A stretch of 13,187 bases of DNA from a virus (Duplodnaviria > Heunggongvirae > Uroviricota > Caudoviricetes), in the IMG/VR virus record IMGVR_UViG_2778261447_000008, positions 1 to 13,187 of that record; one strand, written 5' to 3'. Below the pieces are notes generated by a model. The model made no database searches. It had not been told where the DNA came from and worked only from the letters and a program-made list of their open reading frames with translations. The stretch's first letter is position 1, and each line of letters starts with the position of its first letter. This document shows positions 11,048 through 13,187 of the stretch, piece after piece. A program made the translations under genes and the position numbers.

Positions 11048-11119
11048 ATATGTACCTACGGTGTACATATTACATGATTGAAATGAACCTTCAAGATACT
11101 TGTACCTTAACGGTACAAG
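11048..11119. promoter_or_regulatory. oR-like operator/promoter region between cro and cI
   Basis: Two palindromes: ATATGTAC-N7-GTACATAT (11048-11070) and CTTGTACC-N5-GGTACAAG (11099-11119). Candidate cro promoter on the minus strand: -35 TTGAAG (11094..11089), 16-nt spacer, -10 TAATAT (11072..11067). Confidence 0.55.
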
Positions 11120-11134
11120 GGTTTTAATTTCGTT

Positions 11135-11809
11135 ATGAAAACAATCCATGACATCCGGCGGTCTAACGCCAGAAAACTGAGAGATGGTGTTGGCGGGAAT
11201 TCTTCCTTTGCCACTATGATTGATCGCGAGCCAACCCAGACCAGCAGGTTTATGGGAGATGGTGCTACTAAAAATATCGGTGACAGCATGGCACGACACA
11301 TCGAAAAATGTTTCGACCTGCCTGTCGGATGGCTCGATCAAGAACACCAGACAACGAACATCACAAAAAAACCTGATGTTTCAATCACTAATAAACAAAT
11401 CACATTAGTCCCTGTCATATCATGGGTACAGGCCGGAGCATGGAAAGAAGTTGGATATTCTGAGGTTGATTTGAGCACAGCAGAAACGTATCCCTGCCCT
11501 GTACCCTGTGGGGAAATGACTTATATCTTGCGGGTGATAGGTGATTCAATGATTGATGAGTACCGCCCGGGAGACATGATTTTTGTCGATCCTGAAGTAC
11601 CTGCCTGCCACGGTGACGACGTTATTGCATTGATGCACGATACAGGTGAAACCACCTTCAAAAGGTTGATAGAAGATGGGACACAGCGTTATCTCAAAGC
11701 GTTAAACCCAAACTGGCCTGAGCCTTACATTAAGATCAACGGTAATTGCTCTATAATTGGAACTGTGATTTTCTCAGGAAAACCAAGAAGATACAAAATC
11801 AAAGCCTAA
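11135..11809 (+). CDS. cI: CI-type prophage repressor (helix-turn-helix plus S24 LexA-like peptidase domain)
   Basis: The C-terminal domain closely parallels lambda cI (PVISWVQAG..., GDSM serine motif, TFKRL lysine, ALNPNWPEP vs lambda LNPQYPMIP). The N-terminal DNA-binding domain is divergent, implying a different immunity specificity. Confidence 0.85.
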   Translation: MKTIHDIRRSNARKLRDGVGGNSSFATMIDREPTQTSRFMGDGATKNIGDSMARHIEKCFDLPVGWLDQEHQTTNITKKPDVSITNKQITLVPVISWVQAGAWKEVGYSEVDLSTAETYPCPVPCGEMTYILRVIGDSMIDEYRPGDMIFVDPEVPACHGDDVIALMHDTGETTFKRLIEDGTQRYLKALNPNWPEPYIKINGNCSIIGTVIFSGKPRRYKIKA

Positions 11810-11821
11810 TCAATGTTTATG

Positions 11822-11846
11822 AACCTGCTTCGGCAGGTTTTTTTAT
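11822..11846 (+). terminator. intrinsic terminator downstream of cI
   Basis: Hairpin aacctgc-ttcg-gcaggtt (11822-11839) followed by a run of T (11838-11845), 13 nt after the cI stop. Confidence 0.6.
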
Positions 11847-11848
11847 AC

Positions 11849-11876
11849 TTGACAATGTACCTTTGAGATACATAAT
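11849..11876 (+). promoter_or_regulatory. pL-like strong sigma-70 promoter with overlapping operator
   Basis: Consensus -35 TTGACA (11849-11854), 16-nt spacer, -10 CATAAT (11871-11876). The spacer holds ATGTACCTTTGAGATACAT, which matches the oR palindrome at 14 of 19 positions. Confidence 0.55.
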
Positions 11877-11986
11877 GTACCCAAGAGAAACAACAAACAG
11901 GCAGGACGCCCACGAAGTAGCCGCCTGGGGCATATGAAGTCCAGGATGATTCGTTAGCAACAAAAAAGCGCCCTACAGGACGCTTA

Positions 11987-11998
11987 GCTCTTTAACAA
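11987..11998 (+). promoter_or_regulatory. boxA-like antitermination element (rrn-type)
   Basis: GCTCTTTAACAA matches the rrn boxA core (TGCTCTTTAACAA) at 12 of 12 positions. It sits in the leader about 110 nt downstream of the pL-like promoter, preceded by a small stem-loop (aagcg...cgctt, 11966-11985). Confidence 0.4.
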
Positions 11999-12043
11999 TC
12001 TGGTCCCCATCAACAAGTAACTGATAACTTGAGGAGGTGTGAA

Positions 12044-12250
12044 ATGCACAAAACAGAACCAAAAATCGTCGCGCCCGGATACACAAATGAGGAAATTTAC
12101 GAGTGGATGGCAAAGAAGCTGGCAGCTATAAACCAGCTTCGTGAAGTGCTGTCTTATCGACAGGTAACAATAGACTCCTTAAAAAAACTGGATCAGGAAA
12201 TCACGGTTTTATCACAGGATGTTACTTTAGATATTGTGCAGACAAATTAG
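12044..12250 (+). CDS. small hypothetical protein, first ORF downstream of the pL-like promoter
   Basis: 68 aa from the ATG at 12044, with a strong Shine-Dalgarno GAGGAGG (12031-12037) 6 nt upstream. Not arginine-rich, so not an N-like antiterminator. The track ORF starts 15 nt earlier at a TTG. Confidence 0.55.
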   Translation: MHKTEPKIVAPGYTNEEIYEWMAKKLAAINQLREVLSYRQVTIDSLKKLDQEITVLSQDVTLDIVQTN

Positions 12251-12656
12251 GATCCCATTCATTTTCGTCAAAATCATCAAAGTGATGAATTTGTGATCTC
12301 CAGTCTCGATAATCTAAAAATTTCTGGGCGGTTACGCTTATTTTATCAAGCGTGAGTTCATCCTGAATTGAAAGAAGAAGTTCATCAAATTTCATCTCAT
12401 TAATCTGTTTTGGCATCCAGTGATGCTTCATCAGAATAAGGTGAACCAGAGCTTTTTTCCCATTCAACTGATTATAGGGAGTACCGAATTTCTTCCGGTG
12501 CTCATGTAAGACAAGGTCCAGAAGAGTAAGTAATGTTGCCCTTGATTCAACTTTGCTTATTTCGACTGATGACACTACCCCACTGATTTCAATGCCCCGA
12601 TACTTTCCAACATTTTCACAGTGGGATTTGTACAGCGTATAGATATTACCGGACAT
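12222..12656 (-). CDS. hypothetical protein; AT-rich cargo gene in the immunity region
   Basis: 144-codon ORF with an ATG start, AT-rich. Convergent with the pL-proximal gene, with 29 bp of 3' overlap. No family recognised. Confidence 0.5.
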   Translation of the reverse strand: MSGNIYTLYKSHCENVGKYRGIEISGVVSSVEISKVESRATLLTLLDLVLHEHRKKFGTPYNQLNGKKALVHLILMKHHWMPKQINEMKFDELLLSIQDELTLDKISVTAQKFLDYRDWRSQIHHFDDFDENEWDPNLSAQYLK

Positions 12657-12672
12657 TTCTTTTCCTTTTGCG

Positions 12673-12723
12673 TTGTTGGGGATAACCAGATTAACCGAAT
12701 CCTTGTTGTTGGGGAATAACCAG
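12673..12723. repeat. pair of 17-18-bp direct repeats upstream of the 12222..12656 gene
   Basis: TTGTTGGGGATAACCAG (12673-12689) and TTGTTGGGGAATAACCAG (12706-12723), differing by one inserted A and 33 bp apart start to start. They lie 17-70 bp upstream of the ATG at 12656. Confidence 0.5.
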
Positions 12724-12940
12724 GTCCACCTCGCCTGATGTGGCTAAAAGCAGGCACATAACAGCTAAGTATTTTCAACCAGAGAGAATCCTTAGCGTTG
12801 TGGTGAATGCGGCTCAGCGCACGCGGGTTAAGGTTGAGGCTGACAGTCGACCTTCTGTGGATACCCACCCGTCTGGTGTGCAACCTTCGCCAGGCACCGG
12901 GAGGCACCCGGCACCACAACTTTATGCTGTGTGTAGTCTT

Positions 12941-12987
12941 GACGGTACCAGTTTGTACCCTTGCTTCCGGCTGGTACCGTCCTTTTT
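12941..12987 (+). terminator. strong hairpin with T-tract (candidate intrinsic terminator or structured RNA 3' end), plus-strand sense
   Basis: Perfect 11-bp inverted repeat GACGGTACCAG (12941-12951) / CTGGTACCGTC (12971-12981) with a 19-nt loop, followed by CTTTTT (12982-12987). Confidence 0.4.
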
Positions 12988-13187
12988 ACAAAACAGAGAA
13001 GAGCATCACCGGACGACGGGCTCATAACCCAATCCATCCAGGCGGCAGTCATCGCAGGTGTTCTTCTCTGTTTTGTGGAGAAACTAACCGACCTTGCAGG
13101 GTCGATATGCTGAAGTGGTCAACAAAAACTGGCCACCGAGTTAGAGTTTTTTCCAGTATCGATTTTCCGATTCGTTTGGTGGTAACC

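Follow-up and report, generated by a model that had tools for sequence, protein, structure and literature searches.

A probable modular RNA leader with two inverted repeats in the early-left operon of an e14/SfIV-type lambdoid prophage

Introduction

Towards the right end of the stretch of viral DNA analysed here (13,187 nucleotides, in the following called the window) two inverted repeats stand side by side in a region without an obvious gene, which raises the question of what they are for. The initial annotation had offered a small RNA, a terminator stack, or a recombination or attachment site. We conclude that 12726-13109 on the + strand is probably a conserved, untranslated and modular RNA leader of the early-left (PL) operon of a lambdoid prophage of the e14/SfV/SfIV/ST64B type, in which the first repeat is the terminator of an Hfq-type sRNA.

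The two inverted repeats

Both repeats are present as described. The arms of the first (12941-12951, GACGGTACCAG; 12971-12981, CTGGTACCGTC) are 100% complementary over 11 bp, enclose a 19-nt loop and are directly followed by CC TTTTT, the T-run being 12983-12987. The second consists of ACAAAACAGAGAAGA at 12988-13002 and its exact reverse complement at 13062-13076. An inverted-repeat tool extends this 15-bp pair to 18 nt at 94%, and RNA folding lengthens it to 25 pairs (12983-13007 with 13057-13081), G·U pairs included. When 12660-13187 was shuffled 1000 times with its dinucleotides preserved, the longest perfect inverted repeat (loop 3-80) had a mean length of 7.4 nt and a maximum of 12 nt; repeats of at least 11 nt occurred in seven shuffles and repeats of at least 15 nt in none. 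The 193 nucleotides from 12920 to 13112 fold with z = -5.1 against shuffles. The final 77 bases of the stretch originally described (13111-13187) come from the terminus of an IS3-family insertion and lie outside the element discussed here.

Prophage context

On the + strand of this e14/SfIV-type lambdoid prophage the region lies downstream of a PL-like promoter under repressor control, with the following landmarks:

11849-11876, + strand: PL-like early-left promoter TTGACA-16-CATAAT (promoter scan, 11 of 12 matches)
11856-11872 and 11876-11892, + strand: repressor-operator copies TGTACC-N5-GRTACA, overlapping and following PL
11987-11998, + strand: exact rrn-type boxA GCTCTTTAACAA, about 115 nt after PL
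13107-13109, + strand: ATG of the first early-left gene
13111-13187: IS3-family end (IS911/ISEc52 group) of about 77 bp, transposase on the minus strand

The 17-bp operator is also found three times between cro and cI (11051, 11084 and 11101), and the window holds 12 operator matches, compared with a chance expectation of 1.2. A point against our reading is that repression of PL is to be expected in a lysogen. The role of boxA in antitermination is established knowledge, and the copy at 11987-11998 is the sole exact match in the window. By analogy it is possible that it serves as a NusB/NusE-dependent antitermination site which lets PL transcripts pass the terminator at 12941-12987. An Rfam scan of the PL leader (11780-12260) by E-value gave only noise.

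SfIV, E. coli 82.0311, mEp460, ST64B, F1055, LLS and Eeyore share a common gene order: cro(-), cI(+), a terminator, an operator-bearing promoter, the leader, the first left-operon gene, xis and int. The element lies at the head of the early-left operon, upstream of several genes.

The IS3-family element interrupts the prophage at ATG 13107 and breaks the early-left operon; the body of the first early-left gene is missing in the window because the IS follows its ATG. More than 2400 plasmid records and 2837 E. coli genomes match 13111-13187 only, and annotated IS911/ISEc52 transposases adjoin these matches. From 2435 plasmid matches we had suspected a leading-region ssDNA promoter of conjugative plasmids (Frpo/ssi). 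This candidate was rejected because nearly all plasmid matches cover only the last 77 bases, the IS911/ISEc52 end; the few plasmid records matching the element itself represent prophage sequence.

The putative small-RNA module

The part of the leader up to and including the first repeat comprises four features:

12726-12756, + strand: conserved 5' motif CCACCTCGCCTGATGTGGCTAAAAGCAGGC
12767-12924, + strand: STnc100-like domain with the long-range helix GUUGUGGUGAAUGCGG...CACCGGGAGGCACCCGGCACCACAAC
12925-12940, + strand: single-stranded "seed" TGCTGTGTGTAGTCTT, identical to nt 62-77 of RprA, the most conserved RprA stretch
12941-12987, + strand: intrinsic (Rho-independent) terminator with an 11-bp stem, a 19-nt loop, CC and T5

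Homology with SfV, SfII, mEp460_4F5 and related phages begins at 12726 (BLAST), and the motif at 12726-12756 is also present in e14, F1055, LLS and Eeyore. It could be an H-type pseudoknot or the DNA of a weak promoter. Immediately upstream of the RNA the promoter scan found no convincing sigma-70 promoter; one might guess at the weak CATAAC at 12757-12762.

The Rfam model of STnc100 (RF02076) aligns over its full length (model 1-206) with 12767-12990 on the + strand, with 44.7 bits and E = 3e-8, and the alignment ends at the T-run. Because this is 2.3 bits below the gathering cut-off of 47 bits, we count the domain among the divergent relatives rather than the curated members of the family. 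The corresponding scores are 38.4 bits in SfIV, 35.1 in ST64B, 34.4 in Qin and 29.2 in e14. The STnc100 core motifs GGUGAAU...CACCGGGAGGCACCCGGCACCA are kept in the window, and the 3' seed region of STnc100 differs from that of the window.

The longest common substring of the window and RprA (sequence from PMC5606850 and PMC7311995) has 16 nt, and the RprA-identical stretch precedes the terminator in 76 of 202 distinct contexts. The RprA model (RF00034) has no match at E <= 10 in the window; in LLS and Eeyore it reaches 39.7-41.2 bits, below its cut-off of 70. When pairing with the rpoS leader was predicted by RNAduplex for the RprA-like stretch, genuine RprA itself was not distinguishable from shuffles.

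The terminator stem has seven G-C pairs out of 11 and a predicted energy of -21.1 kcal/mol, and a simple terminator scan missed it only because its loop limit was 8 nt. A hairpin ending at T5-7 is found in 131 of 132 distinct homologous contexts, with -12 to -33 kcal/mol and 27 different stem starts, and these stems covary across the homologues. The 5' half resembles the DicF hairpin (TTGGCGGTATCAGTTT-TAC in DicF, TTGACGGTACCAGTTTGTAC in the window). The DicF model (RF00039) gives 19.9 bits at 12928-12982, which fails its gathering cut-off of 48, compared with 28.5 bits in e14 and 76.7 for genuine DicF. All three Rfam matches (STnc100, DicF, RprA) are under their gathering cut-offs, and at these thresholds Rfam finds nothing in the whole window.

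The long leader hairpin

The second repeat belongs to a larger structure between the terminator and the start codon:

12983-13081, + strand: long leader hairpin with an outer stem P1 of 25 pairs (12983-13007 with 13057-13081)
13009-13041, + strand: inner helix P3 (13009-13013 with 13037-13041)
13018-13030, + strand: hairpin of 3 bp with a 7-nt loop, GGG-CUCAUAA-CCC, inside P3
13042-13055, + strand: variable hairpin P4, GCGG-CAGUCA-UCGC
13077-13088, + strand: conserved GGAGAAACUAAC, of which GGAGA pairs with the terminator U-run at the base of P1
13089-13104, + strand: small hairpin CGACC-UUGCAG-GGUCG, directly before the start codon

P1 includes the 15-bp repeat and begins within the U-run. 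Its pairing amounts to 94.9% of cells, whereas slid controls reach 42-55%, and across 42 sequences the helix is paired at 95.3%. Double (compensatory) changes occur at 11 pairs, a level reached by none of 500 shuffles, and RNAalifold recovers P1 independently. Each of the five outermost pairs (U-A/U·G) is kept in 38-42 of the 42 sequences. The proposed terminator stack is not borne out, as the second repeat has no U-run on its 3' side and is a separate, covariation-supported hairpin which encloses a conserved domain. The suggestion of a small RNA or terminator applies to the first hairpin, which closes the STnc100-/DicF-/RprA-like module.

The alignment contains 195 G·U cells (about 12% of the paired cells), and 94.9% of the cells are paired when read on the + strand compared with 84.1% on the - strand. 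Read from the opposite strand, or placed in a DNA cruciform, such pairs would become A·C, and they therefore point to a structure of the + strand RNA. A covariance model scores the homologues with 88-117 bits on + and 27-38 bits on - (108 and 30 bits for the hairpin at 12983-13081). This bears on the idea that the repeats act at the DNA level as an attachment or recombination site, a cruciform, a replication signal or an IS target, as could be thought of perfect inverted repeats with an IS inserted 30 bp away. The G·U pairs are strand-specific, however, and only the + strand scores with the covariance model. Moreover, the element lies about 1.1 kb after cI and, in intact relatives, at a distance from int and xis; each prophage has a single copy, always oriented alike, and the IS abuts the ATG and not the repeats and is absent from related copies. 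We give a DNA site next to no credence. A retron msr/msd and an attP were rejected too, as neither the context nor the strand-specific G·U pairing fits them.

The structures could also be a put-like or nut-like signal for processive antitermination acting on RNA polymerase. Like HK022 putL and lambda nutL, the element is situated in the PL leader, the window has no obvious N gene, and the 3' arm of P1, UGCUCUU (UGUUCUU in the window copy), resembles the boxA core. This boxA-like stretch would be buried in a 25-bp stem, however, and a much better boxA is available at 11987-11998. The putL RNA, which we extracted from the HK022 genome via a published primer, shows no similarity, and put acts immediately after the promoter, whereas the hairpin here is downstream of the terminator that would have to be overcome. 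We regard an antitermination signal as very improbable.

At 25 pairs P1 is longer than the roughly two helical turns (at least 20 bp) that RNase III takes as a substrate, and by analogy with dicF-dicB the stem is most likely a substrate of this enzyme. The interior of the hairpin is conserved as well. P3 covaries (CCGGG/CCCGG, CCGGA/UCCGG, CCAGG/CCUGG), and in the window one of its pairs is broken by G>A at 13040; because of this change and the IS-disrupted prophage the window copy may be decaying. The stretch 13017-13030 is identical in 14 of 14 nt to nt 29-42 of the E. coli initiator tRNA (metZ), which form the anticodon arm. ARAGORN finds no tRNA gene in 12600-13187, and it is the anticodon arm alone which is common to the element and tRNA-fMet. 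In a scan anchored elsewhere GGGCTCAT..CCC is kept in 87 of 102 distinct homologues. P4 measures 14 to about 40 nt in the homologues, often has a UUGCAG loop, and is 91% paired with two double-change pairs. The stems of the pre-AUG hairpin vary (CGACC/GGUCG, GGCGG/CCGCC, GCGCC/GGCGC, GGCGGCC/GGCCGCC) around a constant loop, (U/G)GCA or GUGCAG. No Rfam family matches the long hairpin at a meaningful score.

The conservation of the apical domain (P3 and the tRNA-like loop) exceeds what RNase III needs, and the hairpin probably does something more or something else. It occurs without the upstream sRNA or terminator in four distinct contexts representing three arrangements, so that release of an sRNA is not its only role. 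One may ask whether it is mainly a regulatory RNA domain, serving the first early-left gene as a translational operator or as a sensor, and not an RNase III site. It would be read by a protein, a ribosome or a tRNA-directed enzyme through P3, the initiator-tRNA-like loop, and P4 and the pre-AUG hairpin with their common UKGCAG loop. The surplus conservation at the apex, the occurrence without an sRNA, the covarying helices with constant loops and the position of the hairpin, always 25-60 nt before a start codon whatever gene follows, all speak for such a function. On the other side, no partner was identified, natural variants alter the "anticodon" loop (UUAAUAA in e14, CUCCUAA and CCCACCA in others), and a regulatory domain is compatible with RNase III processing and does not exclude it. 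As the main function we find it unlikely, though deserving of serious attention, and we prefer the RNase III substrate.

The first gene and coding potential

The SfIV protein which begins at the ATG equivalent to 13107 matches phrog_204 from residue 3 with E = 1e-50, and the phages diverge straight after this ATG. That no ORF covers the region was only partly correct. From ATG 12807 a frame continues for 127 codons without a stop as far as the window reaches; the ORF lists lack it because it runs off the end. This frame is not conserved and belongs to no Pfam or PHROG family.

A protein-coding region with incidental repeats, an ORF of the ymfH or SfIV_34 type, would agree with this open frame and with the annotations placed over the region (SfIV_34 with 226 aa, K-12 ymfH with 103 aa, and a "frameshifted hypothetical protein"); K-12 YmfH also matches a small PHROG. 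The annotated ORFs are in different frames, however, and the 12807 frame stops after 7 codons in ST64B, 42 in e14, 93 in 82.0311 and 112 in pHNAH. Substitutions track base-pairing and not codon position. Taken by themselves, the last 126 aa of SfIV_34 match phrog_204 from residue 3 onwards, which puts the start of the real gene at ATG 13107. A gene reading through the region, which had been named as an observation that would speak against an RNA, exists by annotation only, the frames of SfIV_34 and K-12 ymfH being different and unconserved. A coding function for the repeats seems to us hardly credible.

Homologues and the K-12 copy

Covariation of both the terminator stem and the long hairpin is seen across about 130 distinct homologues, which come from many Enterobacterales; since these were collected with patterns taken from the element, their apparent sequence conservation is inflated, whereas the covariation is not. 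Of 5426 complete E. coli genomes, 2777 contain sequence resembling 12900-13109, in as many as five copies per genome, and it is also found in prophages of numerous further Enterobacterales. Annotations call it "hypothetical protein" or "ymfH", or pass over it. Seeds of about 15 nt are swapped between phages: RprA-like, mEp460-type and several others. In the literature on RprA- and DicF-like prophage sRNAs, on ymfH and on the element's own sequences we found no description of it.

The e14 copy of K-12, on the minus strand of NC_000913.3 at about 1,201,100-1,201,460, is annotated as the CDS ymfH. In Hfq RIL-seq data ymfH appears in 81 and 117 chimeric fragments with 3-4 partners, its SIC score implies that it is always second in the chimera, and it has an sRNA score of 0.113, that of dicF being 0.103 (PMC8175672, Table S1). 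The second position is expected for an RNA with a terminator at its 3' end. These data support, without proving it, that the K-12 copy acts like an Hfq-dependent sRNA.

Proposed working

Transcripts which stop at the terminator would yield an sRNA, starting either from a weak promoter of its own or from processing of the PL transcript, as for DicF. Its 3' module would consist of the RprA-identical single-stranded stretch and the DicF-like terminator hairpin, behind the STnc100-like 5' domain. Read-through transcripts, probably modified at the boxA near PL during induction, would form the 25-bp stem of the second repeat. Cleavage of this stem by RNase III may then create an alternative 3' end of the sRNA and detach it from the mRNA, and may free the region with GGAGA, the small hairpin and the AUG, thereby controlling the first early-left gene.

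Comparison with known systems

A close parallel is DicF/dicB of Qin, which has the same position after a cI-like repressor gene, in an early-left leader running towards int. There, 8 nt beyond the DicF terminator, a long-range stem of 21 bp begins, which encloses an STnc100-like domain and is followed by dicB. Both loci therefore have a stem of at least 21 bp within a few nucleotides of the terminator, a structured domain, and then the first protein gene. DicF is known in a 53-nt terminated form and a 72-nt form generated by RNase III (PMC5069750), and the extra 19 nt of the latter end inside the long-range stem of Qin. Several differences should be kept in mind. The ftsZ-pairing seed UUUCUGGUGA of DicF is absent in the window, which has the RprA-like UGCUGUGUGUAGUCUU 5' of the hairpin instead; the STnc100-like domain is upstream of the sRNA in the window and downstream of it in Qin; the long stems of the two loci enclose different domains; and processing by RNase III as well as RNase E has been demonstrated for DicF only.

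RprA is a core-genome, Rcs-controlled Hfq sRNA. Of its conserved core AUUGCUGUGUGUAGUCUUUGCC 16 of 22 nt are identical in the window, directly 5' of the terminator, and this core is complete in LLS-type phages, whose similarity covers RprA nt 60-105 including the terminator stem GCCCAUC. The stretch is single-stranded in the window and has the same position as in RprA, whose processed 3' fragment (the 47-nt form) is active alone (PMC9262595). The window element has neither the 5' half of RprA nor an Rcs-regulated promoter, and the locus is not rprA.

STnc100 and PasD are prophage-borne sRNAs of Salmonella and pathogenic E. coli, and the window element is prophage-borne as well. Their copies are located in the late region near Q, stx, an esterase gene and the lysis genes (bioRxiv 10.64898/2026.05.13.724894; PMC12370729). 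Unlike these, the STnc100-like copy of the window is in an early-left leader. The identity of the element with the sRNA PasB was considered and rejected.

The N leader of lambda contains a large RNase III-sensitive hairpin between the antitermination site near PL and the ribosome-binding site that serves the first PL gene, and its processing alters the translation of that gene. We know of no sequence similarity between it and the window element, and unlike in lambda the first early-left gene here is not N. HK022, a lambdoid phage without N, likewise has a structured RNA, put, in its PL leader, but this RNA has no structural similarity to the element and differs in its position relative to promoter and terminator.

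Significance

The long hairpin is a covariation-backed motif outside Rfam, the sequences of which were not found in the searchable literature, and the spurious ORFs ymfH, SfIV_34 and mEp460_036 could be removed from annotation. Beyond this we consider a bolder reading, which we rate as a long shot: the hairpin would be an unrecognised class of phage leader RNA which shows the anticodon arm of the initiator tRNA and acts in cis on initiation or as a decoy or sensor, the prophage sRNA would use the RprA regulon, and a retron-Sen2 effect would be due to RNA. If true, the anticodon-arm copy would be, in cis, an "anti-start-codon" or P-site mimic gating initiation of the first early-left gene, or else a decoy or sensor for host factors such as toxins of the VapC/MvpT type, which cleave initiator tRNA in enteric bacteria. 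A "ymfH" clone reportedly triggers the retron-Sen2 toxin, and this triggering would then be an effect of the RNA and not of a protein.

Recognised as RNA, the element would establish a DicF-type family of prophage sRNAs with swappable seeds. Prophages in half of the E. coli strains, including e14 in K-12, would on the bolder reading use part of the regulon of RprA (Rcs envelope stress), and because many prophages carry the most conserved part of RprA, their use of Rcs, RpoS and biofilm regulation becomes testable.

Genomic context of the repeat region

The window covers an immunity region belonging to a lambdoid prophage of the e14/SfIV type; its main elements are listed here.

Features of the immunity region and the repeat region (window positions)
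11135-11809, plus strand: cI, followed by a terminator and then a strong promoter
11849-11876, plus strand: promoter TTGACA-16-CATAAT; the promoter region (11849-11892) holds two 17-bp operators TGTACC-N5-GRTACA
11987-11998: exact rrn-type boxA GCTCTTTAACAA, ~115 nt after PL, preceded by a hairpin (11966-11998 together)
between boxA and the ECs1072-family gene: small gene, phrog_1744
12222-12656, minus strand (opposite orientation): ECs1072-family gene, phrog_5286, upstream neighbour of the repeat region
12941-12951 and 12971-12981: first repeat, GACGGTACCAG and CTGGTACCGTC, then CC and TTTTT (12983-12987)
12988-13002 and 13062-13076: second repeat, ACAAAACAGAGAAGA and its exact reverse complement
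13111-13187 (terminal ~77 bp): end of an IS3-family element (IS911/ISEc52 group), transposase on the minus strand

The promoter at 11849-11876 is the PL equivalent. Its operator is also present in three copies between cro and cI (11051-11117), and the window contains 12 matches in total where 1.2 are expected. The boxA may be a Nus-dependent antitermination site; no N gene shows in this window. In intact relatives the region is followed on the plus strand by phrog_204/yfdP-type genes, yfdQ, yfdR and then xis and int. From this gene order, together with that of the window, it follows that the repeat region is the leader of the early-left operon.

Some further elements were noticed in this neighbourhood. 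The leader beside boxA (11893-11955) shares homology with the leaders that follow PL in ST64B and Eeyore, where the operators differ. In the 5' region of the ECs1072-family gene a direct repeat, TTGTTGGGGA(A)TAACCAG, occurs in two copies 34 bp apart (12672-12724), and it is also found upstream of the counterpart of this gene in Salmonella phage F1055. The adjacent motif CCACCTCGCCTGATGTGGCTAAAAGCAGGC (12726-12756) is conserved and common to e14, F1055, LLS and Eeyore, lying in LLS ~20 nt past the PL start. With CCAC/GTGG and GCCTG/CAGGC pairings interleaved, an H-type pseudoknot is possible; alternatively, the motif might be weak-promoter DNA (CATAAC, 12757-12762). C4 antisense RNA and IsrK exceed the Rfam gathering cut-off in phage mEp460 (L007 324-512) and ST64B (L008 21-110); these hits adjoin a Rha/antirepressor gene and belong to an ordinary P1/P7-type immunity module unrelated to the leader element.

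Protein-coding potential

The initial annotation took 12660-13187 for one non-coding stretch with no convincing ORF. The stretch is not strictly free of ORFs, as a frame is open from ATG 12807 to the window end, and it is missing from the ORF lists because it runs off that end. Its counterpart in SfIV_34 is the N-terminus, which is annotated too long, and the frame lacks conservation: in relatives it spans 7 codons in ST64B, 42 in e14, 93 in strain 82.0311 and 112 in pHNAH. Searches of the window ORF against Pfam and PHROG gave no family. Existing annotations place ORFs here, namely SfIV_34, ymfH in K-12 and, in 82.0311, a "frameshifted hypothetical protein"; these lie in differing frames, and a protein gene over the region was rejected. 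For SfIV_34, the last 126 residues align with phrog_204 from residue 3 (E = 1e-50), and therefore the real gene starts at the ATG equivalent to 13107-13109. Up to this ATG the phages are 94-99% identical; directly past it they are unrelated.

The last part of the stretch, 13111-13187, is instead the IS3-family end; of the thousands of matches that 12660-13187 has in plasmids and genomes, almost all are due to it.

Both inverted repeats were confirmed at the positions first described. When 12660-13187 was shuffled 1000 times with dinucleotides preserved, the longest perfect inverted repeat had a mean length of 7.4 nt, reaching 11 nt in seven shuffles and 15 nt in none. The fold of 12920-13112 is 5.1 standard deviations better than that of shuffles.

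The first repeat as predicted terminator of a small RNA

Rfam was scanned by E-value and not by gathering cut-off (47 bits for STnc100, 70 bits for RprA). The full STnc100 model (RF02076, 1-206) aligns to 12767-12990 on the plus strand with 44.7 bits (E = 3e-8), slightly below its cut-off, and its terminator coincides with the first repeat. The DicF model matches weakly at 12928-12982 (19.9 bits; 28.5 bits for the e14 copy), the 5' half of the DicF hairpin being similar to the 5' half of the first hairpin. The 16 nt directly 5' of this hairpin, TGCTGTGTGTAGTCTT (12925-12940), equal nt 62-77 of RprA, the most conserved part of this core sRNA. LLS/Eeyore-type phages resemble RprA over nt 60-105, terminator stem included, and there the RprA model scores 40-41 bits. 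RprA is naturally processed to a form consisting of its last 47 nt, which is active in regulation (PMC9262595). The Rfam search proposed in the initial annotation thus gave plus-strand matches to STnc100 and DicF, and all family matches, RprA included, stay below threshold.

Homologues were gathered with two independent sequence anchors; each scan brought in 32 species genomes and no fewer than 120 viral contigs. A hairpin ending at 5-7 T is present in 131 of the 132 distinct upstream contexts; its energy lies between -12 and -33 kcal/mol, and its stem has 27 different starts. The ~15 nt preceding it fall into discrete classes: RprA-like in 76 of 202 contexts, mEp460-type CAGCCACUGCUUU in 16, and several others in the rest. 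Such a constant structure with interchangeable seeds has the look of a trans-acting sRNA family. Of the roles suggested earlier (small RNA, terminator stack, or recombination or attachment-related site), the first repeat fits the first, as the predicted end of a small RNA.

The full enterobacterial element is also present on contigs with the labels Chryseobacterium and Geobacteraceae, probably through contamination. A 20-nt loop pattern also occurs in the MAG contigs L020 and L030, from unrelated organisms (Planctomycetaceae and Thermoplasmatales), without the surrounding hairpin; these matches were considered chance or unrelated and left out.

The second repeat: a conserved hairpin in the RNA

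At the RNA level, this second repeat is predicted to fold into 25 pairs (12983-13007 with 13057-13081), this extension being possible because the terminator U-run can pair with GGAGA. We tested a structure consisting of this outer stem (P1, 25 bp), P3, an inner 2-bp helix, a 3-bp hairpin with a 7-nt loop, and P4 on an alignment of 42 distinct short-form sequences (A2). 94.9% of the cells are paired, versus 42-55% when the partners are slid by 1-3 columns, and none of 500 shuffles was as good. Changes on both sides occur in 11 pairs (60 cells), compared with 2-5 pairs in the slid controls, for example C-G/A-U in columns 11-101, C-G/G-C in 16-96 and G-C/A-U in 33-57. The arms of the long hairpin therefore covary in related elements, as the initial annotation had asked. 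RNAalifold independently recovered P1, P3 and the small hairpin. G·U accounts for 195 of 1637 cells, and for this reason the pairing drops to 84.1% on the minus strand. The covariance model from A2 scores 88-117 bits on the plus strand and 27-38 bits on the minus strand with one copy per prophage, and finds no copy in Qin, CPS-53 or HK022.

A U-run is absent 3' of the long hairpin, which is therefore not a second terminator. It is followed by conserved GGAGAAACUAAC, a small hairpin, the ribosome-binding site and the ATG. Phages differ in the stem of this small hairpin but keep (U/G)GCA or GUGCAG in its loop. Four distinct contexts in three arrangements (L022, L098, L126, L206) have the long hairpin without the upstream T-run and terminator, and in L126, L206 and L022 it directly follows an operator/promoter-like region; the long hairpin is therefore an independent leader module. 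In many homologues the nearly self-complementary sequence U(U/G)GCAG stands both in the P4 loop and in the loop of the pre-AUG hairpin. Such common loops would allow a loop-loop contact or offer two sites for one binding protein. In the window the P4 loop (13046-13051) reads CAGUCA and the shared feature is absent; the pre-AUG loop lies at 13094-13099.

The apical part of the hairpin resembles initiator tRNA, a post hoc observation. The 14 nt at 13017-13030 (C plus the hairpin GGG-CUCAUAA-CCC) are identical to nt 29-42 of E. coli tRNA-fMet, its anticodon arm; a search of the region with ARAGORN gave no tRNA. In a scan anchored on the P1 3' arm, and hence not biased towards the apical motif, GGGCTCAT..CCC is kept in 87 of 102 distinct homologues. 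The others still have an apical hairpin, one with the stem switched to GUG/CAC, and variant "anticodon" loops include UUAAUAA (e14), CUCCUAA and CCCACCA. The strong conservation of this domain suggests that an additional partner exists.

Relation to known RNAs and a possible mechanism

Already known are DicF, as a prophage sRNA in this location, the STnc100/PasD family and RprA. An RprA-identical seed on a DicF-type prophage sRNA, seed swapping across a large syntenic family, and a covariation-supported leader hairpin with a tRNA-fMet-like loop were not found in Rfam 15 or the searchable literature, the coverage of which is incomplete. For this reason, and given the three sub-threshold Rfam matches, we claim no new category for the leader element.

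The closest documented system is dicF-dicB of Qin, located at the same position after the cI-like dicA. DicF comes from operon transcripts, its 5' end being made by RNase E and its 3' end either by termination (53-nt form) or by RNase III (72-nt form) (PMC5069750). In Qin a 21-bp long-range stem starts 8 nt past the DicF terminator, ends just before dicB and encloses a sub-threshold STnc100-like domain (34.4 bits; L006 2936-3105, between dicF and dicB). This stem contains the end of the 19 nt by which the long DicF form exceeds the short one, and its position fits the published RNase III form.

The window has the same layout as Qin, although the module order differs, and on this common layout we base a mechanism in which the cleavage, antitermination and regulatory outcome are inferred from the observed architecture. 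Transcripts stopping at 12983-12987 would yield the small RNA. Read-through transcripts, which probably gain termination resistance at boxA during induction, would fold P1. By analogy to DicF, RNase III would cleave P1 and release the small RNA, and this cleavage would remodel the GGAGA/small-hairpin/AUG region of the first early-left gene.

State of the window copy and the copy in K-12

Because the IS is inserted at the first early-left gene, at or just past its ATG, the leader is cut off from the remainder of the operon and presumably also from xis and int. In addition, P3 is broken by G>A at 13040. For these two reasons the window copy is probably inactive as a cis-regulator.

The element is present in 51% of complete E. 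coli genomes. In K-12, e14 has a complete copy on the minus strand (~1,201,100-1,201,460), annotated as the CDS ymfH (L013 5070-5381 = NC_000913.3 1201069-1201380). In a re-analysis of Hfq RIL-seq, "ymfH" occurs in 81 (exponential phase) and 117 (stationary phase) chimeric fragments, with 3-4 partners and always as second RNA in the chimera (SIC = 1 - 1/k); its sRNA score of 0.113 exceeds both the authors' threshold of 0.1 and the 0.103 of dicF, and was not followed up there (PMC8175672 Table S1). The YmfT iModulon includes ymfH, xisE and intE (PMC12132413). The retron-Sen2 toxin is reported to be triggered by a ymfH clone (bioRxiv 10.1101/2020.06.22.160242), and this clone contains the RNA element. 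Both the RIL-seq behaviour of ymfH and the retron-Sen2 triggering may reflect the RNA and not a protein.
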